Shown here piece by piece: positions 3,782 through 51,943 of a stretch of DNA of 64,000 nucleotides (its first letter is position 1; every line of letters begins with the position of its first letter). The stretch is taken from the NCBI GenBank assembly GCA_963754925.1, contig CAVWHX010000009.1, forward strand, positions 69,671 to 133,670, in the 5' to 3' direction. The notes under the pieces were generated by a model that saw only the letters and a list, made by a program, of their open reading frames with translations, was not told where the DNA came from and ran no database searches. The translations under genes were made by a program, and so were the position numbers. This stretch comes from an uncultured delta proteobacterium (lineage in GTDB: Bacteria; Myxococcota; B64-G9).

Positions 3782-3837
3782 TGGGTTGATGGTTTCCTCC
3801 TCTCGATCAGTTTTCGAAGGGAAGGATACTGAGGATT

Positions 3838-3859: not shown

Positions 3860-3881
3860 CGTAAATTCTTGATGGTTTCTT

Positions 3882-12324: not shown

Positions 12325-13530
12325 TTAAGAATAACAAGTTCTATTAATAATAACCTTCTTTAATTCATCGGAAAGGTTATTAAAGTATGCGCAGTATCCG
12401 GCTACGCGCACCAGGAGATAGGGGTGTTTTTCCGGATGGTGGTATGCATCCAGTAATAGTTCTCTGTTGAGAACGTTGGGCTGGAATTGCATGCCGCCTT
12501 TCTTGAAATAGGTGCTGATTAAACCTGAGAGGTTTCTGACTCCGTCAGGGCCCTGAAACAATGCGGAATCAATAGTGAACGTGACCGTGGTGCCATTGGG
12601 GGCATAGGTTTCAAAATCAACGCCGGCCACGGAATTCAGTGATGACAATAAGTCCGCCATCTGCATTCCATAATGAGGAGCAACACTGTTGGCGAGAGGA
12701 ACCCCCCTCAATCTGCCTGAAGGCAGTGAAGGCGTTTTTGCACCGTAAACATCACTTACATTCAAGGCGTAATAACCGGCGGTATATATGCCGTTACGCG
12801 GACAGTTCTCTACCTGTTTCAAAGCGTTAACATAAATCTGTAAGACTCGGTTAACCCATTCGACCGCCTCACGGGACTCATCATGACCAAATTTCGGCAC
12901 AGCGAGTAACGCCCATCGGATGCGCTGATAATATTCTCCGGCAAAGTCGTTGTCGATGGCGTTGATGATGTCATGTATTGAATACAGCTTTTTCTCGTAT
13001 ACGACTTCATTAATGGCGTGCAGCGAATCCGCGACATCCGTAATTCCTACTGCCTGAATGCCGCTGCTGTTAAACGTCGTGCCGCCTTCGTTCACATCTT
13101 TTCCGCTTTCAATACATCCCGTAAAGAGAGAAGATGCCAGGGGTGTGGTAAAGTCTTTACCAATCGCCTTTTCGATTTTCTGGTGATCAGCCAATATAGA
13201 GGACGCCAGATGATTCAAACGTGTCTGATAGCGTTCAAGCAGTTCATCCATGTTCGCGGGCGGATTGGGCCTGGAGGCCCTCTTCTTTTTATACCTGCCG
13301 CGGGCTTGGTTATATTTCAACACAATAAATTTAGAAAATGCAGTATCCCCGCTGAAGGTGTATTCGACAAATTTGGTGATCATTTTCTCCCGTTGATCGG
13401 AGAGTCCAAAGTTCCATAAATCATCTTCTTCGCCTTTCATGGCCTGCAGGAACGGCAGGACCACGTTCATATTGGCGCAGTCGGTATTGCCGAAATGATC
13501 ATCAGAAGCAGTGGGCTCGACACATCCCAC
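12325..13530 (-). CDS. glycyl radical enzyme, C-terminal half (Cys loop GCVEP to glycyl-radical motif RVAGY)
   Basis: VGCVEP at the ORF start. C-terminus …LLVRVAGYCAYFNNLSDELKKVIINRT aligns with the PFL/glycerol-dehydratase glycyl radical domain. Continues the upstream ORF after a 1-bp frameshift in a T5 run (13573-13577). Confidence 0.8.
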   Translation of the reverse strand: MGCVEPTASDDHFGNTDCANMNVVLPFLQAMKGEEDDLWNFGLSDQREKMITKFVEYTFSGDTAFSKFIVLKYNQARGRYKKKRASRPNPPANMDELLERYQTRLNHLASSILADHQKIEKAIGKDFTTPLASSLFTGCIESGKDVNEGGTTFNSSGIQAVGITDVADSLHAINEVVYEKKLYSIHDIINAIDNDFAGEYYQRIRWALLAVPKFGHDESREAVEWVNRVLQIYVNALKQVENCPRNGIYTAGYYALNVSDVYGAKTPSLPSGRLRGVPLANSVAPHYGMQMADLLSSLNSVAGVDFETYAPNGTTVTFTIDSALFQGPDGVRNLSGLISTYFKKGGMQFQPNVLNRELLLDAYHHPEKHPYLLVRVAGYCAYFNNLSDELKKVIINRTCYS

Positions 13531-15629
13531 TATCGAGTAGTTTCTCGCGTCTTCCCGTGTGGTGGGGTAATGTTTTTGTATGGTTTTAATATACCTTCAT
13601 CATTAAACAATTCCGGCATGGGTGACCCATTGATATATACCTCTGCAATCCTGTCCAGATATCGCGGGGGACTGTTTTGATGAATTCTTGCCGTCATATT
13701 TACGGCGAGAGGCTGCAGTTCGCAAACATCCAGCAGCATGTAGGTTAGGTCATTGGTGGCGTCGTGGCCGTTTTTGTCAACACCTCCAAACGTCAACGCT
13801 TGATCGGTAGACTGCGTCTCAAAAAGTCTTCCGATTCTAAGATAGGTATCGCCGTCGTTTACGAGAATGGCCTCGTCCATTTTGAGAATAAATAAGGCCA
13901 GCAGTTCTTTCGCCTTCTCATAATCCATTATTCCGGCCTCGGTATCCTTTTTATAGTAGGGATATAGTATCTGGTCGAGGCGTCCAAAGGATACCGCATT
14001 TTCATAGGACTCTATGCACAGCGCGATCTGTAAAAACATCATGGATTGGAGCGCCTCATGATAGGTGCGGGCAGGATATCGAGGGACCTGTCTGCAAATC
14101 TCCGCCATTTCTTCAAGTTCTCTACGGCGGGCCGGATCTGTTTCTTTTTGAGTTAACTCCGACAGTACATTGGCGTATCTTTCTGCAAAACTCTCCAGCG
14201 CTTTGAGGGCGATAATGGCGCCGTTATAGAAGTCCTGATTATTTTCAGGCTTTTCTTTTTGCTTTTGTTCAATCTCTTGTATGATTCCGGTGGTTCCACG
14301 TTTGAGCATGCGTTCGAAATTGACGACAAAATGCGCTATGGCGGCCGTGTTATTATTGAATCCGGTATTCATTTCGGAACATCGCGCAAGGTTCAACATA
14401 AAATCCGAAAAAGATTTGTACACCTTCATCAAAAGGCAGTGTTTTCGCCAGAAGGGAAATATTCTAAAATAAAAATTAAGCTTGTCTCTAAAAGAACACT
14501 TGAAGGAAACCGGCGTCTGTCGATTGATTTGATGGAGAATGGAAACAAAAAGAACGCCGTAGTGTTCTTCCCAGATCTGGCCGCCGACGCGCTTTGAAGT
14601 AAAATTGCCGACGAGCAATTCATGAGGATAGATGATGATTTTCTTGTTTTTCAATACATGCGACAGACGCTGCGCTCTATGAATATGAACCGGTTTACTG
14701 AAACCATTCTTCTTGTAGAATTCCGTTTTCAGTTTGGATGCTTCAAAACAGAGGTGATAATCACTCCCCCTGATATCTTTTTGTATGTCATAAACGCGAT
14801 TGGTAAAGACGGCTGTATGCCGGGAAGCATCCAAATCACAACATTCGGCCTTGATGTCAAACGATTTGAATAATTCGACCGCGTTTTTGATGGCGGCCAG
14901 GCTTTGATCGGGAGTAATATTCAACGATTCCCGCACCAGACCCAAACGCTGTGCCTTATCTTCGTACAGGTTGTGGTATTTCAGCAACTCAATTGAGTCG
15001 TAATTGATAGACTTTAAAAAAACAGCAGTTGCTTGTATAGTGCTTTCCGTATCGTTGTATCCCGGCACCATCACCATGCGGAATTTAACATTGGCGTTTG
15101 AATCAAGCAGTTTCCTTAGATTACTGTGGATTAATGCGCCATCCTGTTTTGTGTATTTCTTATGAAGATCGTCATCGCCGACAATCTTCAGATCAACTAA
15201 AAACAAATTTATATACGATGCTATGTTGTGTATATGTTCCCAGGGCGCATGCAGGGAGGTTTCGACAACGACATGAATGTTATTATTCTTAAATAAATTC
15301 AAGAGACTTATAAGGCTGCCCGGGTCCTGTAACAGAGGCTCACCGCCGCTGAGGGTCACACCGCCGCCGGTTTTGAAGTAGTACTCGTTATCTCGTAACA
15401 CAACTTCCAGTATGTCGGAAATCGAATACGTGCCGTCGGGCGCCATGGTGGGATTGAATGACAGCGCTTCGGGATTCTGGCACCATACACATCTCAGGGT
15501 GCACCCCTGAAAGAAAATAGTGGTGCGGATACCGGGGCCGTCATGAACACAGGTGCGTTGGATTTTTAAAACTTTTAGCTTCTCGGTGTGTTCGACTGGG
15601 CGATCATCAAGATTTTTGGCGGTCTGCAT
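13530..15629 (-). CDS. in-frame fusion: GRE-activating radical SAM enzyme (about residues 1-265) plus N-terminal half of the glycyl radical enzyme
   Basis: Activase part: GCTLRCVWCQNP (CxxxCxxC), SGGEPLLQ, C-terminus like PflA. An 8-aa linker is then followed directly by the GRE N-terminal region (RAQRLSHVLKNKKIIIYPHELLVGN…; …FNDEGILKPYK). No stop or start between them in any frame. Confidence 0.8.
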   Translation of the reverse strand: MQTAKNLDDRPVEHTEKLKVLKIQRTCVHDGPGIRTTIFFQGCTLRCVWCQNPEALSFNPTMAPDGTYSISDILEVVLRDNEYYFKTGGGVTLSGGEPLLQDPGSLISLLNLFKNNNIHVVVETSLHAPWEHIHNIASYINLFLVDLKIVGDDDLHKKYTKQDGALIHSNLRKLLDSNANVKFRMVMVPGYNDTESTIQATAVFLKSINYDSIELLKYHNLYEDKAQRLGLVRESLNITPDQSLAAIKNAVELFKSFDIKAECCDLDASRHTAVFTNRVYDIQKDIRGSDYHLCFEASKLKTEFYKKNGFSKPVHIHRAQRLSHVLKNKKIIIYPHELLVGNFTSKRVGGQIWEEHYGVLFVSILHQINRQTPVSFKCSFRDKLNFYFRIFPFWRKHCLLMKVYKSFSDFMLNLARCSEMNTGFNNNTAAIAHFVVNFERMLKRGTTGIIQEIEQKQKEKPENNQDFYNGAIIALKALESFAERYANVLSELTQKETDPARRRELEEMAEICRQVPRYPARTYHEALQSMMFLQIALCIESYENAVSFGRLDQILYPYYKKDTEAGIMDYEKAKELLALFILKMDEAILVNDGDTYLRIGRLFETQSTDQALTFGGVDKNGHDATNDLTYMLLDVCELQPLAVNMTARIHQNSPPRYLDRIAEVYINGSPMPELFNDEGILKPYKNITPPHGKTRETTR

Positions 15630-15697
15630 TTTCTAAACAGCGCCTTCTCACATCTAGCTTCATGTTAACTCTATACGCATTACTGAGTCAATCTTAC

Positions 15698-16618
15698 CTA
15701 TCGCACGAGGACCAAGACGACCTTGTTTTTCCCACCCTTCTTCGCCTGGTACAGCGCCCGATCCGCTTTTTCGATAAGCTTCCGAGGCGAAGTTATGGTG
15801 CGATCGCAGACGGCGACTCCCACGCTAACGGTAATCCGGTGCCCGCCACCGGTTATTCTCCCGGCTTTTGCTCTGATTCTTTCCGCGATTTCGCCCGCCT
15901 CATCGGGGTCGTTGGTGAATGGCAGAATGGCGACAAACTCCTCACCGCCAAAGCGGCAGCAGATATCCGAATCTCTCATCTGCTCTTTCATCGTTTTGGC
16001 TACTTTGATCAGTACCCGGTCTCCCTCTTGATGGCCGTACCGATCGTTAACCGACTTGAAGTTATCGATGTCCAACAGAATTAAGGACACGCCGACGCGG
16101 TATCGTCGCTGGCGTCTGAACTCCAGTTCCAGCAGCTCATAACAGCTCGAGTGGTTGAAAAGGCCCGTCATCCCGTCGCGCATCGAGAGGTCTGCTATCT
16201 CCGAGACATAGGCCTCGGCAATCAACGTGGGCGAACTCAACTCACTCGTGATATTCGAAAGGTAATCCAAGGTGGCGACGGTCATGCGCACGTTTCTGCC
16301 AAGTTTCTCCGACATTATGTGCTTGTGCACCAGCACCGTATCCCAAAGGACCTCGGCGATCTTGGGAGCAAAATAGTGGTGCGTAATCGCATAAAACAGG
16401 TCCGAATAAAAGGCGCTCCCCCGACTGTTCTTCTGTGTGCAAATAAAAGCATCCTCCGCCTCTGTCAGTTGTCGGTCGCCGGCACAGGCTGATACTAAAT
16501 CAACGCGCACGGCATCCGACGCGGTTGTTCCCCGCAGCCGATCCGTGTCGTTCTCATCTTGTGCCAACGTGGGCATTCTTCGGCTACTCCCACCCATCGC
16601 CAGTCCTCCGTCGGCCAT
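15698..16618 (-). CDS. GGDEF-domain diguanylate cyclase with N-terminal sensory domain of unknown type
   Basis: GGEEF motif (RFGGEEFVAILPF), with the DRYGHQEGD and SVGVA segments typical of GGDEF domains. Confidence 0.85.
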   Translation of the reverse strand: MADGGLAMGGSSRRMPTLAQDENDTDRLRGTTASDAVRVDLVSACAGDRQLTEAEDAFICTQKNSRGSAFYSDLFYAITHHYFAPKIAEVLWDTVLVHKHIMSEKLGRNVRMTVATLDYLSNITSELSSPTLIAEAYVSEIADLSMRDGMTGLFNHSSCYELLELEFRRQRRYRVGVSLILLDIDNFKSVNDRYGHQEGDRVLIKVAKTMKEQMRDSDICCRFGGEEFVAILPFTNDPDEAGEIAERIRAKAGRITGGGHRITVSVGVAVCDRTITSPRKLIEKADRALYQAKKGGKNKVVLVLVR

Positions 16619-16740
16619 TCCCCTCTCGGTTCGGCCACGACCGTTAATTACAACCTGTCCAGAATTATACTAGTATTTGAGGTTCTGGGCAAAAATAGAT
16701 TAACGTATCACCTATCCAGATGATACCTTTGATCAGCTTC

Positions 16741-17007
16741 GGTAGTGTCTCATTTTACCAGAGGCTTACGGGTGTTCGGCAGGCGACCGTCTATCCCACA
16801 AGGGGACAAGAGCTTGTAAGCCTCACTTTGTTCGGCAACAAGCTCTAGCACCCAGGCTGCATTTGCATAATGAATTTTTCAATCTTGAGCGGTTAATTAG
16901 AGACTGTTAGTGAGCGAAGCGATACTTACAGTCTCTTATCCTTTAGGGTATGTTTCGGTCGCGTGTCGTTCGACGAATACCCGTAAGCCTCAAACTGAGA
17001 CACTACC
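16741..17007. mobile_element. MITE-like 267-bp non-coding element, copy 1 (TIR GGTAGTG…CACTACC; 8-bp target duplication TCAGCTTC)
   Basis: About 95% identical to 35558..35824. Terminal inverted repeats of 12+ bp extended by imperfect pairing. Flanked by direct TCAGCTTC at 16733-16740 and 17008-17015. No ORF. Confidence 0.6.
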
Positions 17008-17034
17008 TCAGCTTCGCTGCGGTGAGGAGATATC

Positions 17035-18663
17035 ATGGGAACAGTTCTCGTAATCAACGGCAGTATCATCGACGGCACGGGAAAACCAGGCTTTCCCGGG
17101 CATGTGCTCATCGAGGGCGGCGCAATAAAAGACCTCTTGAGTCCAGGCGCTTCTCTCCCGCTTGTGGATGAGACCATCGATGCCAAGGGTTGTGTCGTAT
17201 GTCCCGGCTTCATTGACATGCACTCCCACTCGGACTGGATCCTGCCGCTGGAAGAGAACCCAGGCATTCTCAGGCATCTCATCGAGCAAGGCATCACGAG
17301 CGTGGTGGCAGGCAACTGCGGATTATCTCCCGCCCCTTTCGGGCAGAAGATTTCCTACAAACTCCTGCAGAGTAGTCTGCTTCTGGAGAGGAAATTCGAT
17401 GTTACCTGGAAATCCATGGATGAATTCCTTTCGCGTCTATCCGAGACAGGGCCGGCCGTCAATGTTGCAGAGCTTTCCGGCCACATATGCATACGACTCG
17501 CCGCCGCAGACACCCTGCGGGGCGCCCTGCCCCCTGAAGAGCTCAGGAACTGTCTGGCTGTGCTCGGGCAGTCTCTTGACGAAGGGGCCTGCGGCCTGAG
17601 TTTCGGGCTCGGCTATGAACCCGGCATGTATTCTCCCCTCGATGAGATCGAGGCATTCTGCAGGGTAGCTCGTCAAAAGAACAAACCCGTTACCGTACAC
17701 CTGAAAGCCCTGAGTGTCATATCGCCTACCTACCCTTTGACAACTTTTAAGCCGCACAACCTTCTGGCGCTTAAGGAGATGATTGAGATCGCCCGAAAGA
17801 CGGGGATAGACCTTCAGGTCTCCCACTTCATCTTTGCGGGCAGAAGGAGTTTTTGGACCGCCGCAAGGGCCATAGAGATGGTGGAGCAGGCCCGCCGTGA
17901 CGGCGTGAATATCATGATTGACGCCTTTCCGTTCATGTGCGGCAACACCACCATCACGGCGGTGCTCCCGCACTGGTTCCTGAAGAGGACCCCAAAGGCC
18001 TACCATAACCGCCTGCTCAGGCTTCGTCTCAGGGCAGAGCTCGAAACCGGATTTCGACTGATCGGCTTCACGTATAAGGACTTTCAGGTCATGGAGGCGG
18101 GCATTCAGGGGATGGAGGAACTCAACGGCCTCACCATCCCGGAGATCGCAAAAAAATGGCATACGAGCAACTTCGATACCGTGCTCAACCTCTGCGAGCA
18201 GAGCAAAGGGGCCACGCTCATGCTGTTCCACGCTTACAGTGGGGAGCCGGGTCGCACCGAGGTGATTGAACGCGTGCTCTCAAACCGTCTATGCCTTTTC
18301 GAAACGGATGCCGTCATCAAAAGCAGGGGATACCCCAACCCGTCAGCCCGAGGAGCCTTCCCCTATATCCTGGGACCCCTGGTGCGGGATCGTAAACTAT
18401 TCAATCTGGAAGACGCAATCCATCGTTCAACCTACGCAAGCGCACAGCGCTTCCATATCGCGGACCGGGGGCTTTTGCAGGCGGGCAAGGCGGCAGACCT
18501 CGTGGTCTTCGACCCGATTGGCATCTGCGATACCCCGCCCGTCGGCCAGCAAGCCGCGGGCAAGCCAAAGGGCATCATTCATGTATTCATCAACGGACGG
18601 CAGGTGATAAAAGATGGATCGCTGACCGGGGATCAGAGGGCCGGCAAAGTATTGAGGTTGTAA
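17035..18663 (+). CDS. amidohydrolase-family protein, N-acyl-D-amino-acid deacylase (D-aminoacylase)-like
   Basis: PGFIDMHSHSD metal-binding motif with a DGTG N-terminal segment. 542 aa. RBS GGTGAGGAGA before ATG 17035. Confidence 0.8.
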   Translation: MGTVLVINGSIIDGTGKPGFPGHVLIEGGAIKDLLSPGASLPLVDETIDAKGCVVCPGFIDMHSHSDWILPLEENPGILRHLIEQGITSVVAGNCGLSPAPFGQKISYKLLQSSLLLERKFDVTWKSMDEFLSRLSETGPAVNVAELSGHICIRLAAADTLRGALPPEELRNCLAVLGQSLDEGACGLSFGLGYEPGMYSPLDEIEAFCRVARQKNKPVTVHLKALSVISPTYPLTTFKPHNLLALKEMIEIARKTGIDLQVSHFIFAGRRSFWTAARAIEMVEQARRDGVNIMIDAFPFMCGNTTITAVLPHWFLKRTPKAYHNRLLRLRLRAELETGFRLIGFTYKDFQVMEAGIQGMEELNGLTIPEIAKKWHTSNFDTVLNLCEQSKGATLMLFHAYSGEPGRTEVIERVLSNRLCLFETDAVIKSRGYPNPSARGAFPYILGPLVRDRKLFNLEDAIHRSTYASAQRFHIADRGLLQAGKAADLVVFDPIGICDTPPVGQQAAGKPKGIIHVFINGRQVIKDGSLTGDQRAGKVLRL

Positions 18664-18718
18664 CGCCTCATCCCCCCGATGGATGTGTTGAGAGTGCATC
18701 CTAGGAGAGTCGGCGCCG

Positions 18719-20240
18719 TTACTCGACCGAACCGCTCGTACAGGTCGCGCCCCGCGACTGCCCAATTTGATCCGTGGCGGGACAGTCGCTGCCGGCCCCG
18801 CGCGCCGGGCTGGTCGACGCCGGGAGCATCGTCTCGGTGGGGCCCCCGTTGTTGCCCAAGGGACCGAGGAGCGGATCGGCCACCGTGATGTCCGCGGTGC
18901 AGGGGGCCGCGCCTGTCCACTGGAGGTTGCCGCCTCCCTCCCCGAGCTCGTTGTCGCAGCTCGGTCCCCACGTGCCGGTGTTGCCCGAGACGAGGGAGTT
19001 CTTCAGGACGAGCCCGGTGTGGCCGCCGAAGACGGCGCCGGCGCCGGCATTATAGTCACCGGGGTACTGACCGTCGGCGTGGTTGTTGGCGATGGTGCAG
19101 TTGAGGAGCTCGCCGGGCGGGTTGTAGCTCAGCCAAAGTCCGCCGCCGTTGCTCCCGGTGGCGACGTTTTCGGCGACGGTCACGTTGGTCATCTGGACCT
19201 GGGCCTTGCTGATCCAGAATCCCTCCGTTGTACCAGGCCCGGTTACGCGAGATGGTGCTCGCCTCCAGGTTCATGTCGAGCCCCTGGAGGTAGAGGCCGC
19301 CCGCGTCCCCTTCGCCGGCCGCGGTGACTTGGTTCGCATCGACGGTGGTCTGGTCCATCGTGAAGGTGCCGGAGTTGTCGTTTGAGACCCTAAAAAACCC
19401 GCCACCTACCGCCCCCGCCGTGTTATTGGCGATGGTCACGCCGCAGAGAGCGGTCCGCTCGTCCGCCCCGTCCATGTAGATCGCGCCGCCGCAGCCGCCG
19501 TTTCCCGGATTGCCGCCGGTGCCTGTGGCCGCGTTCTGGGTGAAGGTGCTGTTGACGACTATCAGATCGCCGTTGAGGCTGCCGATGGCGCCGCCGTTAC
19601 TGGCCTCATTCCCCTGGAAGGTGCTGCCGACGACGATCGTGTCGCCGCCGCCGAAGGCGTAGATCGCTCCGCCCGCGATGTCCTGTCCGGGCGACGGGGC
19701 CTGGTTGTCGAGGAAGACCGAATTGATGACCGTCAGGCTGCCGCCGTTCCGATAGATAGCGCCGCCGCCCTGGGTCGTGTCATCGCCGCCCGGGGGGCTG
19801 CTGCCATCGCTGAAGGTGAGCCGCTGCACCGAAAGCCGCGGCGTGGTCTGGTCGTAGCCGGAGTCTAGGTAGAGAATGCGCGAGGTCCCGCCGCCGCTCA
19901 GGGTGACCGTGCCGCCGCCGTCGAGGACCGTCTCCTTCTTGAATATGATGGGTGAGGTCACGGTGATCGTGACCGGTGAAGCGCCGCAGTTGAAGACGAT
20001 AGTTCCCCCGGCGTCCGCCGCGGTCTGGAGGAACGCCTGGGTGCAGGTCTCAGCCGTGCCGGAACCCACTACCGACGTCGGGGCCGACACGTCATAGGGG
20101 CCTACCGGCGCTTCGCAGGTAGTAGGCGGAGGGTTGCCGCTGAACTTGGTGTGGTTTCCAGATGAGCAGGAGCAGGTTACGAGGAGCACCGCAGTCAGTA
20201 AGAGGCACGAGCGCATACGACCTCCGACGTGATTAACCAT
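18719..20240 (-). CDS. secreted lipoprotein with parallel beta-helix (Pmp-like GGAIY) repeats and a C-terminal choice-of-anchor-Q-type domain; frameshifted near 19215
   Basis: Lipobox LLVTCSCSS. Repeated GGAIY/NGGAI motifs. Second ORF (18719..19192) carries ADPLLGPLGNNGGPTET…DQIGQSRG. The first ORF runs into Arg-rich nonsense after …STISRNRAWYNGG, so a frameshift joins them. Confidence 0.55.
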
Positions 20241-20438
20241 ATGCTCCTATTTTAGCACCTTAATCAGACTCGATCATCAGTGAAATTCTAACGTTTCCCG
20301 ATGACACCGGTCGAGAGGCGATTTGCTATCCTTGAAATTCCTCCTTGACATGGGGGAATTTCAAGGTTTGTTCCGTTCGATTCGATCAATTACTTTGACC
20401 TCGAAGACCCTTCAAATCTGGCCCGTCTTGATGAACCC

Positions 20439-20945
20439 ATGACCGCCTTGCAGAACCTTAAAGGGCTGGTGGTGATTGATGAGATCCAGCGACGCCCGGA
20501 GCTTTTCCCTATTCTGAGAGTCCTGGCGGATCGCGTTCCGCTGCCCGCGCGTTTTCTCATTTTAGGGAGCGCATCGCCGGCATTACTGCGTCAATCATCC
20601 GAATCGCTGGCGGGACGGCAAGAAACCATCTGCATCGGCGGCTTGATGCTCAACGATGTTGGGATACGACATCACGATCGACATTGGCTGCGCGGAGGGT
20701 TGCCGCTCTCTGGGGCAACCCATGCCGGCGCCGAACTGGATATATTGCTTATAAAGGGACGTCGTCGTATCGGGGTAGAAATCAAGCGGGCGGACGCGCC
20801 GGGCTTGACGCCCTCCATGAAGGTGGCGATGAGCGACCTAAGTTTACAAAAACTGTTTGTCATATATCCCGGTACAAAACGTTATTCACTTGCCCGGGAT
20901 ATTGAAGTTCTTCCGATGGCTCAGTTGTTGGATGCTTTGAAATGA
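20439..20945 (+). pseudogene. AAA+ ATPase (DUF4143-type) lacking its 5' end (P-loop region missing)
   Basis: Protein begins in the Walker-B region ([13 protein letters not shown]). Upstream in frame reads …[15 protein letters not shown] back to a stop near 20347, and no Walker A is present. A palindrome lies at the break. Confidence 0.6.
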
Positions 20946-21204
20946 TGAAGACTGCTTAAGCCATACCCACCCAAATTCGCATCTAGAGTTCTTTTGAAAC
21001 CGGATCTCCTTCCAAACATCATGATAGGCAAAAAGAAAGGAACAAAACTTGGCAGGAGTTTATGCAGAGCTTATTATTAAGAAAATAGGGCGACAGAACG
21101 ACACGGGGAATGAATGGGTCATCGCACGTCTAGGATGGAGAACCAGCTACTTGTCGTGGAGCTATGCAGAAGCTACAGAATAAATTGTTAGCGTGTGATA
21201 AATT

Positions 21205-21981
21205 ATGTCTTTTGACCAGCTTAAGCATGTATCTAGAATTTGCCATGGTGAAGGCAGCCATTTTTTGTTTGTTGAGGAATGGGATATCAAGAGGCAGTAT
21301 TTGGCTGTGTACAACCAAGATATACCTAAACTCGTTGATAAGTATAAATCGTCAAAAGAAGAGCCATATGAACTTGATCCAAAAATTACACTGGTTGACC
21401 AAGCGCCAAGGCTGCGCCTTTCTAGCTCATGCGAAGCAGCAGCTAATTTCTTATATTCAATGGCAGAGATAGCAGCTCAGTTTGGAAATAAAGTATCGAA
21501 AGGAGATCTTCCTTCATCTTTTAATAAATTAAGAAAAAATTATGAAGATGGCGCTTTCCGAGAGCTAGGCTTAGTTGAATGGGTGGATGATTTTCAATGG
21601 TATAAAAAGGTCAGAGAATTAAGAACCGAATGGGCTCACTTTTCAACCATATTTATAGGTAGGGATGATCGTGGAGAACCAATATTGGTTGTAAGGTCGC
21701 ACAGGCGCCATTCTGATAGAGAAGAGTTCAAAGGTAAAATAGAAATAAACATTGGTGATTTAGTTGGCTGGATAAATAAAGCTATTCATACAATTGATAG
21801 CTTTGGCAATTTTCTTCTAGTGAAATATATCGTGCCATCGCTTGATTTAAATAGAGAGTTTATTTCCCCTGTTTATGACAAGAATGGGTTTCCAATTATT
21901 AAACTAGATAATAGGTTTGAAGTGGAGACCATTACAGTTGAAGAACATTTGCGAAGATGCGGTATTACAATTCCACGCTAA
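21205..21981 (+). CDS. hypothetical protein (258 aa), first gene of an AT-rich four-gene cassette; contains an Rx4H motif (RTEWAH)
   Basis: ATG 21205. No recognisable family. Codon usage and G+C differ from the flanks. Confidence 0.5.
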   Translation: MSFDQLKHVSRICHGEGSHFLFVEEWDIKRQYLAVYNQDIPKLVDKYKSSKEEPYELDPKITLVDQAPRLRLSSSCEAAANFLYSMAEIAAQFGNKVSKGDLPSSFNKLRKNYEDGAFRELGLVEWVDDFQWYKKVRELRTEWAHFSTIFIGRDDRGEPILVVRSHRRHSDREEFKGKIEINIGDLVGWINKAIHTIDSFGNFLLVKYIVPSLDLNREFISPVYDKNGFPIIKLDNRFEVETITVEEHLRRCGITIPR

Positions 21982-22089
21982 CAAGGTTATCAGCTACGCG
22001 CCTTCGGAGCCGAACGCAAGCAAGCGTGCGCCGGTTATAACGGCGTTAGGTGGACCAAGGCAAACATCAAAGAAACCGAAGGAGGAAAT

Positions 22090-22539
22090 ATGCTTTTTAA
22101 AAAGCGGTATACAAAGAATGTGGCCAGAATTTATCAGTCTAATGATACTGATGAACAATTTGGCTTAATTGCAATCAATGGGGACATGAAGGAAAAACTG
22201 ATATCCAAATTCAAGGAAAATTATCAAATTCAAGGCAATCATATTAAAAATGGTGGTAAAACATCGGAACTTTGTATTCCTACCTTACTAGCGGGAGGTA
22301 CTGGAGCACTAAGTATGGCAGCAGCTACATCTGGTACATTATTCATGGCAACGGCAAATCCCGCCACTTTGATGGCTATTGGAAATGGAGTGGGTAGTGC
22401 TGTTATGGGTGCTGGGGGCATTCTTGCGCAAGCTCCATTTATATCTGTAGCCGGTGCGTTAATGCCTGTTGCTGCTCCATTACTTGCTTTTCAAGCTTTA
22501 TCAACAATAATGATTCTTCAACAGTTTAATCTGCTTTAA
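22090..22539 (+). CDS. small protein with C-terminal glycine-zipper-like membrane segment (149 aa)
   Basis: Soluble N-terminal half, then …LLAGGTGALSMAAATSGTLFMATANPATLMAIGNGVGSAVMGAGGILAQAPFISVAGALMPVAAPLLAF. Confidence 0.5.
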   Translation: MLFKKRYTKNVARIYQSNDTDEQFGLIAINGDMKEKLISKFKENYQIQGNHIKNGGKTSELCIPTLLAGGTGALSMAAATSGTLFMATANPATLMAIGNGVGSAVMGAGGILAQAPFISVAGALMPVAAPLLAFQALSTIMILQQFNLL

Positions 22540-22546
22540 TGAAAAG

Positions 22547-23281
22547 TTGGTCAGTATCGAAAAAACTATCAACCGTGTTTTGCAAAGAAATGAAGCTGCA
22601 TATATTGGTGAAGCCATTTCGGCATGTTCACGTCTCGACGGCTTAGAAAAAGAGTTTTCTGTAGCAAACAAATTTACTCAAGATATGATTATTCGATTAG
22701 CCCTAATTGAAGACAAGGTTAATCCAATATTTGAAAGATATAAATATTTGTATGAAGCACAAGATATTAATAAAAGATTGTCAGCCGAGGATTTGGGATT
22801 TAAACAAACCGATGCATACATTTTAATTGTTTTATCAATGCTTGATCTAAGAAATGATATTCTACGAGTTAAGCTTACAATTCAAGAAAATCCTGGTGTT
22901 ATAAAACAATCTGCAGAGAACTTGATTGGAAAAGTAGAGCGTTACCGAAAACTATGGATGGATATTGAAGAAAGCCCCAAAAGAGTCGCGGAAGTTTCAC
23001 AATCTATTAGAGATGCTGTTTCAGATATGAGATTTTGGAAAAAAAATATGCCTGGTTGGTTAGGCGGAAATCGTAAAGGCCGAAAAGAAATGCAAAAGCA
23101 AGCATCAGCTTTATCTACAAATAATTCCGTTGAAAAGGTGTCTAGTATAGTTGATAGTGCGAAATCTGCCATTGAAGTTGGAAATTCACTATTGTCAAAT
23201 GCAAAACCGGTTACATTACTTTATTGGGAAGATGATAATGGTAAACACTCATATTATACAGATGATGTTTTAATTCAATAA
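22547..23281 (+). CDS. hypothetical protein (about 244 aa; start uncertain, TTG at 22547 or a downstream ATG)
   Basis: Open frame begins 7 bp after the previous stop. Predicted helical/coiled-coil. No family recognised. Confidence 0.4.
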   Translation: MVSIEKTINRVLQRNEAAYIGEAISACSRLDGLEKEFSVANKFTQDMIIRLALIEDKVNPIFERYKYLYEAQDINKRLSAEDLGFKQTDAYILIVLSMLDLRNDILRVKLTIQENPGVIKQSAENLIGKVERYRKLWMDIEESPKRVAEVSQSIRDAVSDMRFWKKNMPGWLGGNRKGRKEMQKQASALSTNNSVEKVSSIVDSAKSAIEVGNSLLSNAKPVTLLYWEDDNGKHSYYTDDVLIQ

Positions 23282-23372
23282 TTCACCTAACAACGAGTTC
23301 AAACTGATTTGCAGGACAAGCCTGCAAACAGGTTAACTCAATGCTGGCCAACCAAAATTCATAGGTTCGACC

Positions 23373-24302
23373 ATGCCCAAACAACTATCTCCAGCAGCAG
23401 TGATGGCCTTAAAGGAAGCGCTCTGTTCGGTCTACTGGTACAAGTCTGACCTTCGAAGCTTCCTGGAACTGTGCCTGGCAGATCCATCGATACTCTCGCG
23501 ATTTGATTGGAGTAACTACAAGCGGCAAATCGTGTCGGACTTGATAGACGTTTTGGTTAAAAGCCCAGAAAAGCACATCGGTGACATAACGAAGATTTGC
23601 TATGAGCTTTGCAAAATCACAGACTACAACCACCTAAAGCAATTAGATGACGGAGATACAAAGGCAGAGCGAGCTCGCGCTGCTGTAAACCAGCTAAAGC
23701 AGCTGGTAGAACCCCACCAAGATTTCGAGAAGGAGCAAGAAGAGATTAGAAAGCGGCAGGAGATCGCCGCGAAGAAATTGAAAGAGAATCTGGCAGTTAG
23801 AAATAAGCTCGAAGAAATCAGGACTCGCTATCTTGGTCTTTTCGAGGCTGCTAACCCACAAAGCCGTGGTTACGAGCTTGAGAAAATCATGTACGATCTA
23901 TTCGAGCTGTTTGATTTAGATCCCAAGGCGTCATTCAAGAACACTGGCGAACAGATTGATGGAGCCTTCAAGCTTGAAGGAACAGAGTACTTATTCGAAG
24001 CAAAGTGGCAGAAAGAGATGGTTGATAAAGCCGACCTGTCAATATTCTCTGACAAGGTTCGAACAAAACTAGAAAACACGTTGGGGGTGTTCCTTTCGAT
24101 CAATGGCTACTCGCAAGAAGGCGTTACAGCTCATCAAGCTGGAGGATCAGCCATCATACTGATGGATGGAGGCGATTTGATGGCCGTCTTTGATGAGCGG
24201 ATTGATTTCGTGAGCTTACTGCTGCGTAAAAAGCGGCATGCCGCTCAAACAGGTAATATCTATCTCACTTATTTTCAAATTGCTGGATCTGAGAATGGCT
24301 AA
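23373..24302 (+). CDS. protein with N-terminal unknown domain, coiled coil, and C-terminal Mrr-type restriction-endonuclease (PD-(D/E)xK) domain
   Basis: C-terminus GYELEKIMYDLFELFDLD…GEQIDGAFKLEGTEYLFEAKWQK…GVFLSINGYS matches the Mrr_cat core (D, E-x-K). Confidence 0.6.
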   Translation: MPKQLSPAAVMALKEALCSVYWYKSDLRSFLELCLADPSILSRFDWSNYKRQIVSDLIDVLVKSPEKHIGDITKICYELCKITDYNHLKQLDDGDTKAERARAAVNQLKQLVEPHQDFEKEQEEIRKRQEIAAKKLKENLAVRNKLEEIRTRYLGLFEAANPQSRGYELEKIMYDLFELFDLDPKASFKNTGEQIDGAFKLEGTEYLFEAKWQKEMVDKADLSIFSDKVRTKLENTLGVFLSINGYSQEGVTAHQAGGSAIILMDGGDLMAVFDERIDFVSLLLRKKRHAAQTGNIYLTYFQIAGSENG

Positions 24303-24460
24303 CCAGTCGCTCAACCGGACACTGCCTCTGCGAGACACAGTCCGATCCTTTCGCGACGCAATGGGGTCGCCGGTTAGCTTCCATCGATAGGCGGAACGCA
24401 TAGTAAGGAGTCAACGATGCGAGGTAGTTTGCATATCACTGAAATCTCGTTTAGACTCTC

Positions 24461-25096
24461 TTGGTCAATTTGAGGACAAGTATGAACGACGCGCAAATCC
24501 GACATGCCTTTCACCGAAGGCTTCTCCGAAGACACCATGCCCAGACGGCGACTCGCGTAATTGACGAATTTGGTCTCCAACATGGCAGATCGCGAGCAGA
24601 TATCGTTGTTATAAATGAGACTCTCTCAGGTTACGAAATAAAGAGCGATCAAGACTCTCTGGAAAGATTGAGGTCACAGATCGAAAGCTATAATGCCGTA
24701 TTCGACCGAGTTTATATCATTGTTGCGACTCGTCACCTCCTTCGCGCGGTTGCACTAATCCCTCCATGGTGGGGCGTCATATCCGTCACTAAAGGCCCGC
24801 GAGGGGGTACTCGATTCGAACGCGTGCGTCCCTCCAAACCCAACGTCAGCGTCAACGATTACGCAGTTGCCCAGCTCTTATGGCGGGATGAAGCAATTGA
24901 ATTGCTAAGTAGCTTTGGCGCAAGAGGCACCCGACTCAGGGAGCCCAGATCCAGTCTCTACAGGTATCTTGTCGAGATGCTCGATTCCCACGACCTGCGT
25001 CGAGCCGTTAGAACCTATCTCAAACAACGCCCAGCGCGACCACATCTTGCGCCACCATCTCCAAATGGTGGTTCGTCCCAACCCATCGCCACGTAG
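24461..25096 (+). CDS. hypothetical protein with a putative PD-(D/E)xK-like core (sce7726-family-like)
   Basis: RSRADIVVINETLSGYEIKSDQD gives a D…E-x-K arrangement. Convergent with and overlapping the 3' end of a beta-protein-family gene. Family assignment from memory only. Confidence 0.4.
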   Translation: MVNLRTSMNDAQIRHAFHRRLLRRHHAQTATRVIDEFGLQHGRSRADIVVINETLSGYEIKSDQDSLERLRSQIESYNAVFDRVYIIVATRHLLRAVALIPPWWGVISVTKGPRGGTRFERVRPSKPNVSVNDYAVAQLLWRDEAIELLSSFGARGTRLREPRSSLYRYLVEMLDSHDLRRAVRTYLKQRPARPHLAPPSPNGGSSQPIAT

Positions 25097-26116
25097 TCAG
25101 ATTGCCGGTCGAAGCTTGACCTTGCGAGCATTTATAGATGTACTCGTCTCCTTTTGAAAACTTCCACCCGCGGTAGTACTTTTTTGCTCCTACAACCATG
25201 CTACACAAATCGCGGTATTGGTCGAACCCATTATCACGGACGTTCTTTCCCTTTACTAAAAGCCACCCGTCATCAACTGTATACCTTATGCTTGCAGATG
25301 GTTTCACTATTCTCATATCTATAGTGGGAACTTCGGGGTGGTTAATCGCATAGTCACCAAAACATGGGACCCGAACACCTAACTGTGCTAGCCGACTCGC
25401 AAGCATCTTGTACATACTCCACTCACTTCTAGGAATAATTGAAGCCCCAAGTCCAACAATTGCCATCGTGGATGGAAACGATGTCCCGATCAACACCAAC
25501 CTTCGCCAACGATCCAAGTTAGGAAAAACCCTAATAATCTCCTCCAGGATATTAACAAACCCGTCCATCGGATCAAAATTCGGTGCTTCTAAGTCAAGGA
25601 TTAGATCACAATCCTCTGGTTTCAGGCCGTAGCCCTCAATCAGATCCTTTACCAAGCCTAAAAAGCCTTTATTTGCCGTCTCATCGATACGTAACCTAAG
25701 AGCCAATCCACGCCCGTCCGCCCCAACAATCCTCCTAATAGACATCTGCATCCCTGGCGGTTCTACTAGCCTAACAACCGGGATAGCAAGTGCCTTTTTA
25801 GCTTTAAGTCATCAAATACGAATGTCAGCGCATCCTCGCCTTTGAGCATACGATTCGATGCTCCCACGAGCCGCAAGTCAACAAGGCACTCATCTCTTCC
25901 CCACTTCTCACTGACTCGTTGGGCAAATGGGCTAAGATGCTCATCGATTGTTTTAGATTGCTTCTGTTTCTCAAAATCGAAACCGATTTCAGCAACCTCG
26001 ATCAGAGGCAGTATGCTTTGCCGCGCACCAGCTGAAAGGTGTTTCAGGGCTTGATATTCGCCCTGTTTCCAGCGAAGGCAAGGAACGTATGGCATCCTAT
26101 TAACTTCCACCGACAA
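25020..26116 (-). CDS. beta-protein-family (PF14350-like) protein, split by a 1-bp frameshift in a T5 run (25795-25799)
   Basis: N-terminus MPYVPCLRWKQGEYQAL is typical of the family. Adding one A to the A5 run joins …FVFDDLKLKKALAIPVVRLVEPPGMQMSIRR… (116+243 aa). Confidence 0.5.
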
Positions 26117-26127
26117 CCTCCTTACTC

Positions 26128-27438
26128 TCAGATGCCAAACGACGCTTCCGGGAAATGTTTTCGCACTTCACCTTGCCCCACCAAGTCATTTAGAATGACG
26201 TAATTCCTGGCCTCATACCTGATTCGACCAGCCACAATTGCTGAGCTTATACCTAGCTGTTCCGCCAGCATCTTCACCGATTGCGGTGACCGCACGTATC
26301 GCGCAAGTGCACGGCTCCATATCGCAGCTGGTATAAGCACCTCCCCCGTAAGCTTGTCCGCCTCTACTTCACTCTTATCCTCGTCAGAAGCATCCAAATC
26401 GTCGAAAACCCCTTCGATTGCACCCTTCTGCAGGTGCTTTAAGACATGAAAGATCTCATGGAAAAGAACAAACCAGAAGTTGTCAAGACGGTCGTACCTA
26501 AGCGTCAAGCCAATTATGGGCAGGTATCCATCATATAGAATCGCTGCTCCGTCCAAATGAGTGCTGGGCAAATGCGACTCTACTACAAGTGGAATACCTG
26601 CCTTTTGCAGGATAGTCCTCGCACAGGCCGGCCCATTTGGCAGAGCACTACTCCTCACGAGTTCCGCAATGCACTCTGAGGTTAGTAGCTCAGGTCGATA
26701 TCTTTCTCCGACGTCAGCCCGCTTTGCCAAAGCAATAACACGGCATTCCCATGCCAAGAGCGAAAATTTATCAACTGATGAACCAGAGCGTACCTTCATG
26801 CTGTGTAATGCAACTGCTGGCTTTCGAGAAACACTGGTTATATAATCTTCGACAAGTGATTCAGTGTTACGCAGTGCTGCATCAAGCGATCCAGAATACC
26901 CCTCAAGCCAGCCTCGCTTATACATCTCCCTAATAGGAAACTTGCTCCAGTCAATTTTCTCTAAATTCCTCGCTCTCCGAGACAAAGACTCATCCACTAT
27001 CCGAGCGGACTCAGTTATCTTTAGGTTCAGTGCCTCAGCAATCTCTCGAAGACGTCGTAGACTTGCCATGAAATACTCATCAGACTCATACCGCTGAATC
27101 TGTTGCTCCTTTAACCCAACTAGTTCAGCGAGCTGTCGTTGTGATAAGCCTCTGGCTATACGCGCCCGAATTAGAATCCGAGGCAATTCGTCTAGGCTTG
27201 CTGCTTCGAGTTTGGTGACTCCACCCGACTTGAGTTCCTCATATTCATGTATTTCGTCTGAGAGCACTTTTAACTCGCTCCGAAGTGCCTCCAGCTCCGC
27301 TGTTGCCAGAATTTCCGATCCCACACGGTTAGCAACAGCTCGCGAATCGAATTCTTCGATTCCCTTCTGTAACTCACCAAGCCTCCGCTTCGATATGCGA
27401 TATTGACGTTCGTTCGAAATCATCACACTAGCCTCCAC
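26128..27438 (-). CDS. XRE-family HTH domain fused to ImmA/IrrE-type zinc metallopeptidase
   Basis: HTH LSQRQLAELVGLKEQQIQRYE in the middle. HExxH (LFHEIFHVL) in the C-terminal domain. 11-bp overlap with the downstream small nucleotidyltransferase gene. Confidence 0.8.
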   Translation of the reverse strand: MEASVMISNERQYRISKRRLGELQKGIEEFDSRAVANRVGSEILATAELEALRSELKVLSDEIHEYEELKSGGVTKLEAASLDELPRILIRARIARGLSQRQLAELVGLKEQQIQRYESDEYFMASLRRLREIAEALNLKITESARIVDESLSRRARNLEKIDWSKFPIREMYKRGWLEGYSGSLDAALRNTESLVEDYITSVSRKPAVALHSMKVRSGSSVDKFSLLAWECRVIALAKRADVGERYRPELLTSECIAELVRSSALPNGPACARTILQKAGIPLVVESHLPSTHLDGAAILYDGYLPIIGLTLRYDRLDNFWFVLFHEIFHVLKHLQKGAIEGVFDDLDASDEDKSEVEADKLTGEVLIPAAIWSRALARYVRSPQSVKMLAEQLGISSAIVAGRIRYEARNYVILNDLVGQGEVRKHFPEASFGI

Positions 27439-27853
27439 CCAATTCTTTGAGATGCAGGCGAATAATCCCCTTCTTCTTTCCCGTCTCTTTGTCCTTTTGG
27501 AAATAATCTACGAAGAAAAGAGAACTATCTGCTCGTGCGCTCGACGGGAAGAATTCACCTCCGTATTTCAATTTCTGTTTGCGACGTTTGTCTGAGAAAT
27601 CCAAGAACACTGGGTTTAGCTTTACAGTGTCAACACCAGTAGGATCCCAGCACACGTCATAGTCACCAGGTCTCGGTTTCTCCGTTACAAAGCTCCCATC
27701 CAGGAACACCTCTTTGCATCCTGCCGCCTTAAGCAATCTACAGGCGTTCACCAATCCAAAAAACAGCTTTCGTCTAACCTCAGAACTTCCGAACCGCTCC
27801 CTTACTTCTTGAAGTGTTGCATCGTGAATCCCCGGTGACGTGCCCCCGTTCAT
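27428..27853 (-). pseudogene. small nucleotidyltransferase-fold protein interrupted near its 5' end by the IS3-family element
   Basis: DGSFVTEKPRPGDYDV fits the GS-x9-D-x-D motif of Pol-beta-type nucleotidyltransferases. The first 6 codons of this ORF are read from the IS terminus. The native 5' end (…MVLPP) lies at 29112-29199 on the far side of the IS and joins in frame across the duplicated CCGG. Confidence 0.5.
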
Positions 27854-27864
27854 AGGACCACTCT

Positions 27865-29816: not shown

Positions 29817-29849
29817 AAGATCGAACGAGCGCATTAAGGCGGAACTATC

Positions 29850-35378: not shown

Positions 35379-35557
35379 CTTGGTTTCCCTCCTTAATGAA
35401 TGATAAGCTTTGGTTAAGGTGGAAAATTTACACCATACGCTTTCTTGGTAAGAGCTTGTTCACTAATGCCATAAAAAACGTCTAAAAGACATTGATTTCG
35501 TGTCTTCGCGTTGTTGCACCGGCATGATGAATCACGGTCGAACCTGCATGATTCTTC

Positions 35558-35824
35558 GGTAGTGGGTCAGTTTGCAAAAGGCTTACGGGTGTTCGGCAGG
35601 CGACCGTCTATCCCACAAGGGGACAAGAGCTTGTAAGCCTCACTTTGTTCGGCAACAAGCTCTAGCACCCAGGCTGCACTTGCACACTGAATTTTTCAAT
35701 TTTGAGCGGTTAATTAGAGACTGTTAGCGAACGAAGTGAGCGTTACAGTCTCTTATCCTTTAGGGTATGTTTCGGTCGCGTGTCGTTCGACGAATACCCG
35801 TAAGCCTCTAACTGACCCACTACC
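35558..35824. mobile_element. MITE-like 267-bp element, copy 2 (8-bp flanks GATTCTTC / GGTTCTTC)
   Basis: Same length and about 95% identity to copy 1. Terminal arms differ from copy 1 but remain self-complementary. Lies in the divergent region between the acylase and plsC-like genes. Confidence 0.6.
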
Positions 35825-35885
35825 GGTTCTTCGATGTCATTGCATTAGTATTAGCTTCGAAATAAGATAGTTACCGGAGATTGCT

Positions 35886-47491: not shown

Positions 47492-49773
<2,282 letters not shown>

Positions 49774-50499: not shown

Positions 50500-50810
50500 A
50501 TAAACTCAAAAGCAAAGGAGGGCGTGATTAATCACGTCCCTTACCTCATATGCTCGTAAAAGAACCAAAAGCGACCAAACCAATTACACTTATTCCCCCC
50601 GGGTGTCAAGGAAAGACGCCGGCGCCCCCCACCCGGCCCCTAAAGGAATAAGTGGCTGGAACGCTCGCTTCGCTGAGGAACTCAATCTTATCCCCTTCGG
50701 GGATGTAGAAATTCTTACTGAGCAAAGCGAAGTTAGTATTTCTTATCCCCTTCGGGGATAAGAGCCCGTAAAGCTCGCGTCCCCTGTCGGGAACGCTCGC
50801 TAACGGGCTC

Positions 50811-51943
50811 TTACTGCGCGGCCTTGCGGTTGATTTTGAAAGCGTAGAGCTTTTGATCGCCTGAGGTGACGTACAACCGGTCGCCGTCCAGAATCGGATC
50901 GCTCTCGATCTTATAGTTAGTCCTGAAAGACCACACCTGCTGGCAATCGGCTCGATTGATGGCGTAGATCGACCCGTCGCCCTGGCCCGCCCCGAAAATC
51001 GCCACATCCTGGTAAAAAACCGGGTAGGAGATCACCGGTCCTTTGGCCGTGAAGTGGCACTTTTCTTTTCCGTTAGCGGAATCGAGCGCATAGAGGTTGC
51101 CATCGTTGGACCCGATAAAAAGCGTCCCATCTATGATGCGGGGAGAGCTGAGCACATTGCCGCCGGTTTTAAACTTCCATTTGACCGTGGCGCCCGTGGC
51201 CGCATCAATGGCATAAACCTGATCGTCCTTCGAACCAAAATAAACCGTGCCTTTTTCGACCCAGGCGGTCGAGGTAATCCCCTCACCGGCTTTAAAAATC
51301 CACTTCAGCGAGCCATCCACGACATTGAGGGCATACATATTGCCGTCGAGGTTGCCGATGTACAGCACGCCTTCGCTGATTACCGGTGCGGCATACGAAA
51401 ACGAACCGGGCGAAAGCGCCGAGGCGGATGGCTCATCAGACTTGGCCTCGCCGGTCTTCGCGGCATCGGGGGGAACTGCCATAGCTTCTTCCCGTTATCA
51501 GCGGCCAGAGCATAGACGTGGCCGTCGTAGCTGGTCAGGTAGACGACGCCGTTTTCAACCACCGGATCCGACTTGATCCGGTCGCGGGTGATGTACTTCC
51601 ATCTGAGCTGCCCGTTGAAATCGAGCGCATAGAAGGTCTGATTCGTCGCCCCAAAAAAGATCAGCTTCCCGTCCGTCTGCGGATGCGCAAAGATCCCCGA
51701 GCTGGCCGTCTGGAACTGCCAACGAGTGCGGCCGTTGCGATCGACGGCGTTCATCACGCCTGATTCAGACCCGAAAACAATCAAGTCCTCGACGACGAGC
51801 GGCGTGGAGTAGATCGGCGAGCTCGTCCCAAACTCCCACAATTTTTCAAAATCCGAAGTGCACCCCGCGGCCATGCCCACACCAACAACCAGTAGAAACA
51901 CCTCTGCAACTTTTAGTAACCTGGAAGACTGAGTCATTATCAC
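50811..51943 (-). CDS. PQQ-repeat beta-propeller lipoprotein (BamB-like); 1-bp frameshift in a G7 run (51468-51474)
   Basis: Lipobox VGMAAGCTSD. Repeated YALD..G...W blades in both ORFs. One extra C would join …KLWQFPP-DAAKTGEAK…. Confidence 0.7.

Follow-up and report, generated by a model that had tools for sequence, protein, structure and literature searches.

A 267-bp MITE-like repeat with 8-bp target-site duplications in an uncultured delta proteobacterium, and an IS110/IS1111-type insertion sequence in the terminal repeats of its relatives

Introduction

In a typical MITE family, the two ends are conserved and the interior is modular. Elements in the ISPna2 group of the IS1595 family have ends similar to the GGnnnTG type and make 8-bp duplications. 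Ends of the GGnnnTG form are also common to most members of the IS6/IS26 family and to IS1, and the target duplications of IS6/IS26 elements are 8 bp long (PMC6807381). Within the IS1 family, ISDge2 from Deinococcus geothermalis has the terminal repeat GGTAGTGGCTGC and is flanked by 8-bp direct repeats, nine of which have been tabulated and one of which stems from an observed transposition event (PMC7674623, PMC8533066). The ISAba3-like IS1 element in Moraxella, which has the end GGTGGTGTTTCA (GGTGGTGTTTCAAAAAG...), likewise generates 8-bp duplications (PMC6382973). IS1111-type elements, on the other hand, are characterized by subterminal inverted repeats and a long 3′ non-coding region (PMC11187229), and QMITE2, a small repeat in Coxiella burnetii, is a target of such an element (PMC5896051).

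Here, we describe a repeated sequence in a stretch of 64,000 nucleotides from an uncultured delta proteobacterium, hereafter called the window, and compare it with its relatives in other genomes and metagenomes and with the systems above.

Results

The window contains two copies of a non-coding sequence of 267 bp, which have the same orientation and are located at positions 16741..17007 (copy 1) and 35558..35824 (copy 2) on the + strand. The initial annotation had placed this two-copy repeat correctly but had put the identity of the copies at about 95%, whereas an ungapped comparison yielded 248 identical positions out of 267, or 92.9%. The 19 differences are clustered in the terminal repeats (positions 8-21 and 252-260 of the element), in its centre (122-144) and in a hairpin loop (171-185). 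Both copies start with GGTAGTG and end with CACTACC, but they differ in the bases that follow inwards, such that copy 1 represents a TCTCA/TGAGA end variant and copy 2 a GGTCA/TGACC end variant. The terminal inverted repeats with subterminal pairing that had been described for the element were recovered, with 12/12 complementary positions between GGTAGTGTCTCA (16741..16752, + strand) and TGAGACACTACC (16996..17007, + strand) in copy 1 and likewise 12/12 between GGTAGTGGGTCA and TGACCCACTACC in copy 2, and with imperfect pairing that continues inwards over about 50 nt, in copy 1 from the left repeat onward to ~16789. Since the first and last 12 nucleotides are perfectly complementary within each copy, positions 8-9 and 259-260 differ in a compensatory manner between the copies.

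A conserved subterminal 17-mer occurs four times in the window, where 0.18 occurrences are expected by chance, and its sites are the four ends of the two copies only. The number of dispersed copies is two in 64 kb, and a profile search of the window detected no further full copy. The element contains only chance open reading frames, the longest fully internal one of which comprises 51 aa and is located in copy 2, and no match to a protein family was found within it. Its length of 267 bp lies in the range of MITEs, which comprise about 100-400 bp and have no coding capacity.

The 8-bp flanking repeats reported in the initial annotation were confirmed for both copies. Copy 1 is flanked by a perfect direct repeat (8/8) of TCAGCTTC at positions 16733..16740 on the left side and 17008..17015 on the right side, while copy 2 is flanked by GATTCTTC (35550..35557) and GGTTCTTC (35825..35832), which agree at 7/8 positions. 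A ninth matching base on the left side, a G, is the first base of the element itself. The duplicated sequence differs from site to site, which suggests that the choice of target is loose.

An empty site, of the kind that the initial annotation had envisaged in related genomes, was found for copy 1 in an ENA metagenome contig (L011), which encodes a 95%-identical homologue (P0001) of the amidohydrolase downstream of copy 1. The sequence upstream of P0001 reads ...ATAGATTAACGTATCACCTATCCTAATGATACCCTTGA-TCAGCTTC-CCGTCGGTGAGGAGGTATC-ATG, and consists of the left flank known from the window, a single octamer and the ribosome-binding site, without the element. In a BLAST alignment, positions 133-181 of L011 correspond to positions 16692-16740 of the window, and positions 174-3878 correspond to positions 17008-20711 with 93% identity. 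The two alignment blocks overlap by 8 bases in L011, and these are the duplicated octamer TCAGCTTC. The presence of an ortholog that lacks the element and contains only one octamer shows that copy 1 was inserted and excludes a conserved leader. A contig from the Logan collection (L024), which represents the same strain in a second sample and is 99.95% identical to the window, has a filled site and begins within the right-hand end of this copy, a break of the kind that assemblers leave at repeats. The locus is thus polymorphic for the presence of the element, being empty in L011 and filled in the window and in L024. No empty site was obtained for copy 2, for which the nearest amidase homologue checked (P0243 in L018, 80% identity) was non-syntenic. 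Nor were matching duplications seen around the metagenome copies of the element, the contigs of which were assembled across repeated insertion sequences, such that the flanks possibly come from different loci.

The alignment with L011 revealed additional differences between the two genomes. L011 lacks the gene for a GGDEF diguanylate cyclase (15698-16618, − strand) that is located directly to the left of copy 1, and has 55 unrelated bases (78-132) in place of positions 15692-16691 of the window. Copy 1 consequently borders on another insertion/deletion by which the two genomes differ. The gene for an AAA_14 ATPase (20439-20945) is truncated in the window, in which about 450 bp of L011 3606-4562 are missing, whereas the version in L011 is intact and encodes a protein of 318 aa with AAA_14 and DUF4143 domains. 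The region at ~21150-30680 has a lower G+C content than much of the window and includes several open reading frames without a Pfam match, a split "Beta protein" gene, a gene for a protein with an HTH and an M78 peptidase domain, DUF6932 and an IS3 element. At the corresponding place, L011 (4767-7330) contains different genes instead (DUF4062/pYEATS, DUF6602, Imm40). Both versions of the cassette have a common repeat of about 45 nt (ATTATAATGGGTTGCCGATCG...) at their borders, which is located at positions 29267-29316 and 30681-30730 in the window, and the region looks like a variable, defence-island-like cassette site. On the − strand, several genes seem to be divided over adjacent open reading frames, as observed for the Beta protein (25020-26116; 116 + 243 aa), for a peroxidase (47492-49770; 560 + 225 aa) and for a PFL-like glycyl-radical enzyme (12325-15629; 699 + 401 aa), and could represent frameshifts, sequencing errors or pseudogenes in the assembly.

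To identify transposases, all 56 open reading frames of at least 110 aa in the window were scanned with Pfam. The sole transposase is OrfB (27865-28776, − strand; rve and HTH_21 domains) of an IS3-family element at positions 27836-29111 (− strand), in which a short OrfA is located upstream of OrfB. The outermost bases of this element (TGACCTGCCCCC... / ...GGGGGCACGTCA), when compared with those of the 267-bp repeat as TGACCTGCC.../...GGGGGCACGTCA, are unrelated to them. The scan and the comparison of the ends both uphold the earlier statement that no cognate transposase is encoded in the window. A search for an autonomous element with GGTAGTG ends had been proposed, but no partner with the same terminal repeats was found in the window or in any of the collections searched, which comprised plasmids, phages, 185,579 species genomes and viral contigs, and no IS1-type gene was identified in the window or in the related loci. 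The searches for a partner demanded exact matches of at least 16 specified bases (16 to ~20, depending on the scan), for which reason its absence is weak evidence. Because no partner was found, we infer the family of the transposase from about 12 nt of the ends together with the length of the duplication.

Given that the element is a MITE, the IS1 family is its likeliest parent, and a reasonably probable one in view of these two features. The ends of the element have the GGnnnTG form of the IS1 family, and its duplications of 8 bp agree with the 8-9 bp that are typical of this family. The end of copy 1 matches the ISAba3-like IS1 element at 10 of the first 12 positions, and the agreement with the two IS1 members ISDge2 and ISAba3-like IS is 9-10/12. 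Several families that make 8-bp duplications had been listed as candidates in the initial annotation, and among these, IS1 fits the GGTAGTG end best according to our comparison with the literature.

It is rather unlikely, by comparison, that the MITE was moved by another family with GG...TG ends and 8-bp duplications, either by IS6/IS26, through a copy-in cointegrate that is subsequently resolved by recombination between the copies, or by the ISPna2 group of IS1595. All ends of the MITE family contain the bases G1, G2 and G7, and the combination of GGnnnTG with an 8-bp duplication also fits IS6/IS26 (PMC6807381). However, the MITE ends lack the conserved TTGCAAA block of IS6 past position 7. 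Furthermore, copy 1 matches the IS26 end (GGCACTGTTGCA) at 8/12 positions, as compared to 9-10/12 for the IS1 members, and IS6-type elements are not known as a source of MITE families. None of the points against these families is decisive.

The element forms a long, imperfect palindrome. Each of its strands folds much more stably than shuffled sequences do (z = -10.2 and -9.6), and 97 positions are paired from end to end in the consensus fold. An internal hairpin, H' (AAGAGCTTGT...ACAAGCTCT; 16808..16846, + strand), has the same sequence in both window copies. A second hairpin module, H (16899..16950, + strand), consists of hairpin H proper (AGAGACTGT...ACAGTCTCT) at positions 16899-16936 and a small hairpin, TATCCTTTAGGGTA, directly after it. 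The stem pairing of H is kept in the metagenome copies, although the stem is there formed by GAGCCCGT...ACGGGCTC as opposed to GAGACTGT...ACAGTCTC in the window, which corresponds to two double changes. These changes maintain the local hairpin and weaken the long-range pairing, which suggests that the local hairpins are the conserved part of the structure. Both the terminal stem and hairpin H show compensatory changes, which go beyond what a plain MITE model needs and hint at an extra structural constraint. In its overall organization, the element appears to resemble a head-to-head pair of one IS end plus a hairpin module.

A solo H module (AGAGCCCGT...ACGGGCTCT plus TTATCCCCGAAGGGGATAAGA) is located at positions 50741..50811 (− strand) and begins at the stop codon of a beta-propeller open reading frame. 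As it has no terminal repeats, we classify it as a related small palindrome, not as another copy of the MITE. The H module also occurs alone in one of the metagenome contigs (L019). In the window, the solo module is followed by more small related palindromes (50634-50841, − strand), including a shorter second copy of the small palindrome, ATCCCCGAAGGGGATAAGA, which are located between the PQQ/beta-propeller open reading frame and a tRNA gene (50427-50499). They seem to form a family of small, REP-like hairpins that is related to the interior of the MITE.

The palindromic structure is also what would be expected if the element were a GTAG-tagged palindrome doublet of the REP/REPIN type, spread by a REP-associated tyrosine transposase (RAYT) instead of a DDE transposase. 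A GTAG motif is present in the ends (G-GTAG-TG), the long imperfect palindrome is built from hairpin modules, one of which is found solo elsewhere in the window, and GTAG-tagged REPs are known targets of IS1111-type elements (PMC5896051). However, a length of 267 bp is far above the size of a REP doublet, and no Y1 transposase was present among the 56 window open reading frames scanned. Moreover, HUH/Y1 transposition, as in IS200/IS605 and RAYT, is not known to produce a target duplication, whereas the 8-bp duplication of copy 1 is verified by the empty site in L011. A doublet of this type is therefore an improbable explanation.

Inspection of open reading frames and Pfam domains showed that the gene contexts of both copies had been described correctly. 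Copy 1 is placed between the GGDEF gene (− strand) and the amidohydrolase gene (+ strand), 27 nt before the ATG of the latter, and copy 2 is placed between a penicillin-amidase gene (− strand) and an acyltransferase gene (+ strand), 61 nt before its TTG. Direct look-ups of the amidohydrolase and the acyltransferase from the window gave no match. A possible contribution of the copies to promoter or UTR structure had also been suggested, but motif scans for sigma-70-like promoters and intrinsic terminators detected none within copy 1 or copy 2, which leaves this suggestion without support. By its insertion, copy 1 has separated the ribosome-binding site of the amidohydrolase gene, which was left intact, from the former upstream region by a very stable hairpin of 267 nt, so that transcripts from upstream would have to cross a hairpin with a predicted stability of about -122 kcal/mol. 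Any effect of the insertions on the genes that follow them would most probably be neutral or mildly modulatory.

We find it very unlikely that the element is a conserved, structured leader or a regulatory RNA of the downstream genes and is not mobile at all. Both copies are indeed located just before + strand genes in the same orientation, and the predicted structure is very stable and shows a few compensatory changes. Yet, no statistical weight attaches to an orientation shared by only two copies, the genes that follow them are unrelated in function, the amidohydrolase ortholog in L011 has no element in front of it, and the related copies are found in quite different contexts. In addition, no match to Rfam was obtained at gathering or permissive thresholds, even at E = 1, and the two strands fold about equally well, as palindromic DNA does, unlike a strand-specific RNA. 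The initial interpretation of the element as a MITE is hence supported: its authors had considered that orthologous loci might carry the sequence without flanks resembling target-site duplications, but the ortholog in L011 is empty.

Relatives of the MITE were searched for in other genomes. No match to the 267-mer was found in plasmid and phage collections with BLAST in distant mode, and an exact conserved subterminal 20-mer is absent from 185,579 species-representative genomes. The same 20-mer has one match in metagenomes, which is located in a JGI contig (L001), and additional contigs (L013-L016 and L019-L023) were reached by following the neighboring gene in L001. In this manner, the search for further copies proposed in the initial annotation uncovered the family at unrelated loci in other metagenomes. 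The related copies, from peat and other metagenomes, are 72-87% identical to the window element and have the same ends, and the end sequence of the terminal repeats is also kept, with GGTAGTG at 8/8 ends examined. The copies in L001 and L014 are 86-87% identical to the window element, and the copy in L014 is complete with the right end ...CTCTAATTGACCCACTACC. The copy in L013 is 72-78% identical and has retained both ends of about 45 nt as well as the H module, while the middle is different.

The terminal-repeat pattern GGTAGTGNNTCAN{4,10}AGGYTTACGG had a single match in the genomes (L017) and none in the viral contigs. The match in L017 is a solo end-like sequence of 31 nt, GGTAGTGTCTCAGTTTGAGGAAGGCTTACGG (L017 537-567, − strand), between UvrA-like and DinB-like genes in a Candidatus Dormiibacterota bin (DATNKB010000333.1). 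It agrees with the MITE end well past the positions that the pattern requires, has no similarity to the element beyond, and may be a remnant of this MITE family in another phylum. A scan of the viral contigs with a 16-mer gave nine matches, none of which extended, and these were dismissed as chance.

At several of the related loci (L001, L013-L016, L019 and L021-L023), the MITE is associated with an insertion sequence that is absent from the window, here called the companion IS. The gene beside the MITE copy in L001 encodes a DEDD transposase with matches to PF01548 (E = 2.9e-20) and PF02371 (E = 7.3e-23), and by these domains, the companion IS belongs to the IS110/IS1111 family. It occurs in two types, one of 1424 bp in L014 (261-1684) and one of 1401 bp in L013 (15-1415), which are 83% identical to each other. 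The transposase comprises 360-368 aa, the subterminal inverted repeats are CATGAAAGTGGGCTGTC / GACAGACCCACTTTCATAG, and the stop codon is followed by about 245 nt of non-coding sequence. No match to Rfam was found in the companion IS.

In the terminal repeat of the MITE, the companion IS sits precisely at the junction of GGTAGTG and NNTCAG, and in one orientation only. Insertions were observed at at least six different loci, with six distinct left flanks that all abut GGTAGTG, and these occupied loci (at least six) belong to one or more organisms in peat metagenomes. All junctions have the form GGTAGTG|TA(T/C)TCATG... on the left side and ...CATAGATG|NNTCAG on the right side. More specifically, a flank that ends in GGTAGTG is followed by TA(T/C)TCATGAAAGTGGGCTGTC in six contexts at the left junction, while ...GACAGACCCACTTTCATAGATG is followed at the right junction by TCTCAGTTTG... 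or GGTCAGTTTG..., which is the remainder of the MITE. The base pairs TG are common to both junctions of the IS. Excision in silico of the 1424-bp IS from L014 or the 1401-bp IS from L013 restores GGTAGTG|NNTCAG, which in L014 is TCTCAG. The junctions indicate that the companion IS was inserted into the MITE, and not the MITE into the IS. The MITE core in L001 is surrounded by a perfect inverted repeat of 47 nt, which we considered as an assembly fold-back but which is better explained by a second IS copy placed symmetrically in the other terminal repeat.

The least credible explanation, in which the element would itself be the non-coding end (bridge/seek RNA gene) belonging to an IS110-family element whose recombinase moved it, was suggested by the position of the L001 copy about 240 nt downstream of the transposase gene, but was dropped on the evidence from the junctions, which place the IS inside the terminal repeat such that removal of 1424 bp restores GGTAGTG|TCTCAG, and is also contradicted by the subterminal repeats and the 3′ non-coding region that the IS has of its own, by the variable 8-bp duplications, which are unlike the products of IS110-type recombination, and by the lack of an IS110 homologue in the window in a tblastn search.

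In the 3′ region of the companion IS, a segment that is complementary to the top strand of the target is located 5′ of a segment, GGTAGTGT, that is identical to the top strand. The same order of segments has been reported for the seekRNAs of IS1111 (PMC11187229, PMC11208160). Candidate guide segment 1 reads ACTGAGTCA in the L014-type IS, which is found in TCTCAG and ACTCAG ends, and ACTGACCCA in the L013-type IS, which is found in a GGTCAG end. The two guide-like segments overlap at the crossover TG and face each other across an internal loop of a predicted stem-loop. Within the two IS variants that could be compared, the candidate guide segments thus appear to co-vary with the target variant, as a programmable guide would predict.

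Discussion

The ends of the 267-bp repeat, its target-site duplications, the insertion polymorphism at the copy 1 locus and the distribution of related copies over several genomes identify it with considerable confidence as a MITE that is mobilized by a transposase acting in trans, probably of the IS1 type, with duplication of 8 bp of the target. The transposase would be made elsewhere in the genome and bind both GGTAGTG-NN-TCA... terminal inverted repeats, whereupon the ends of the element would be joined to staggered cuts 8 bp apart in the target, and the repair of the gaps would yield the 8-bp direct repeat. The most probable enzyme is a trans-acting IS1-type DDE transposase, where we infer both the family of the enzyme and the mode of transposition.

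The MITE family was previously uncatalogued, but it is an ordinary kind of element. Both 267-bp blocks should be annotated as mobile-element insertions and not as regulatory leaders, and the intergenic regions before the amidohydrolase and the acyltransferase genes have been remodelled recently. The plasmid, phage and species-representative collections searched contained no match, and the element thus adds a MITE family from poorly sampled anaerobe or peat lineages.

The most noteworthy aspect is the presence of an IS with a putative guide RNA at the ends of the MITE, which is found outside the window and for which there is a published precedent. It is a tentative but serious possibility that the terminal repeat of the MITE is a dedicated landing site of an RNA-guided IS1111-type element and that the two co-evolve. 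There would then be at least two old variants of the repeat (TCTCAG/ACTCAG and GGTCAG), each of which would be matched by its own guide (ACTGAGTCA versus ACTGACCCA). If this is true, the copies in the window, one per variant, would be unoccupied landing pads, and the family would provide a natural example of guide reprogramming that follows a mobile target. Selection exerted by the transposase of the MITE, by the guide RNA, or by both could account for the compensatory changes through which the two ends of a copy remain identical.

Among the known systems, members of the IS1 family (ISDge2, the ISAba3-like IS and IS1 of E. coli) have GGnnnTG ends like GGTAGTG(T/G)(C/G)TCA in the MITE and make 8-bp duplications alike, but the MITE has no transposase gene, and the comparison is limited to about 12 nt of the ends. 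The element that is closest in organization is QMITE2 from Coxiella burnetii, since both are small, non-coding and have terminal inverted repeats of about 23-29 nt (PMC5896051). In both cases, the flanking direct repeats are variable and 7-9 bp long, a GTAG-tagged palindrome is present, and shorter, REP-like hairpin versions occur as well, and both QMITE2 and the present family are the specific insertion target of an IS1111-type element (PMC5896051). The likeness is one of organization, and QMITE2 is 150-190 bp long as compared to 267 bp for the present element. Unlike QMITE2, the present element resides in uncultivated bacteria, whose proteins have their best matches in Desulfobacterota-type metagenome bins, and the insertion point of the IS is between positions 7 and 8 of the terminal repeat itself.

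The companion IS, in turn, is similar to IS4321/IS5075 of the IS1111 group, in that both occupy a fixed position and have a fixed orientation inside the terminal repeat of another transposon. However, the target of the companion IS is the end of a MITE, whereas IS4321/IS5075 target the terminal repeats of the Tn21 family (Tn3-family transposon). The companion IS shares a DEDD transposase (PF01548 + PF02371), subterminal repeats and a long 3′ non-coding region with the IS110/IS1111 elements that use seekRNAs or bridge RNAs (PMC11187229, PMC11208160), while its transposase is longer at 360-368 aa than the 330-350 aa of typical IS1111 members (PMC11187229). With the role of the guide still putative here, this would be the second natural case of a guide-RNA-directed IS in the ends of a MITE after QMITE2/IS1111 in Coxiella, and since two guide/target variants can be compared, the system could serve the study of natural guide reprogramming.
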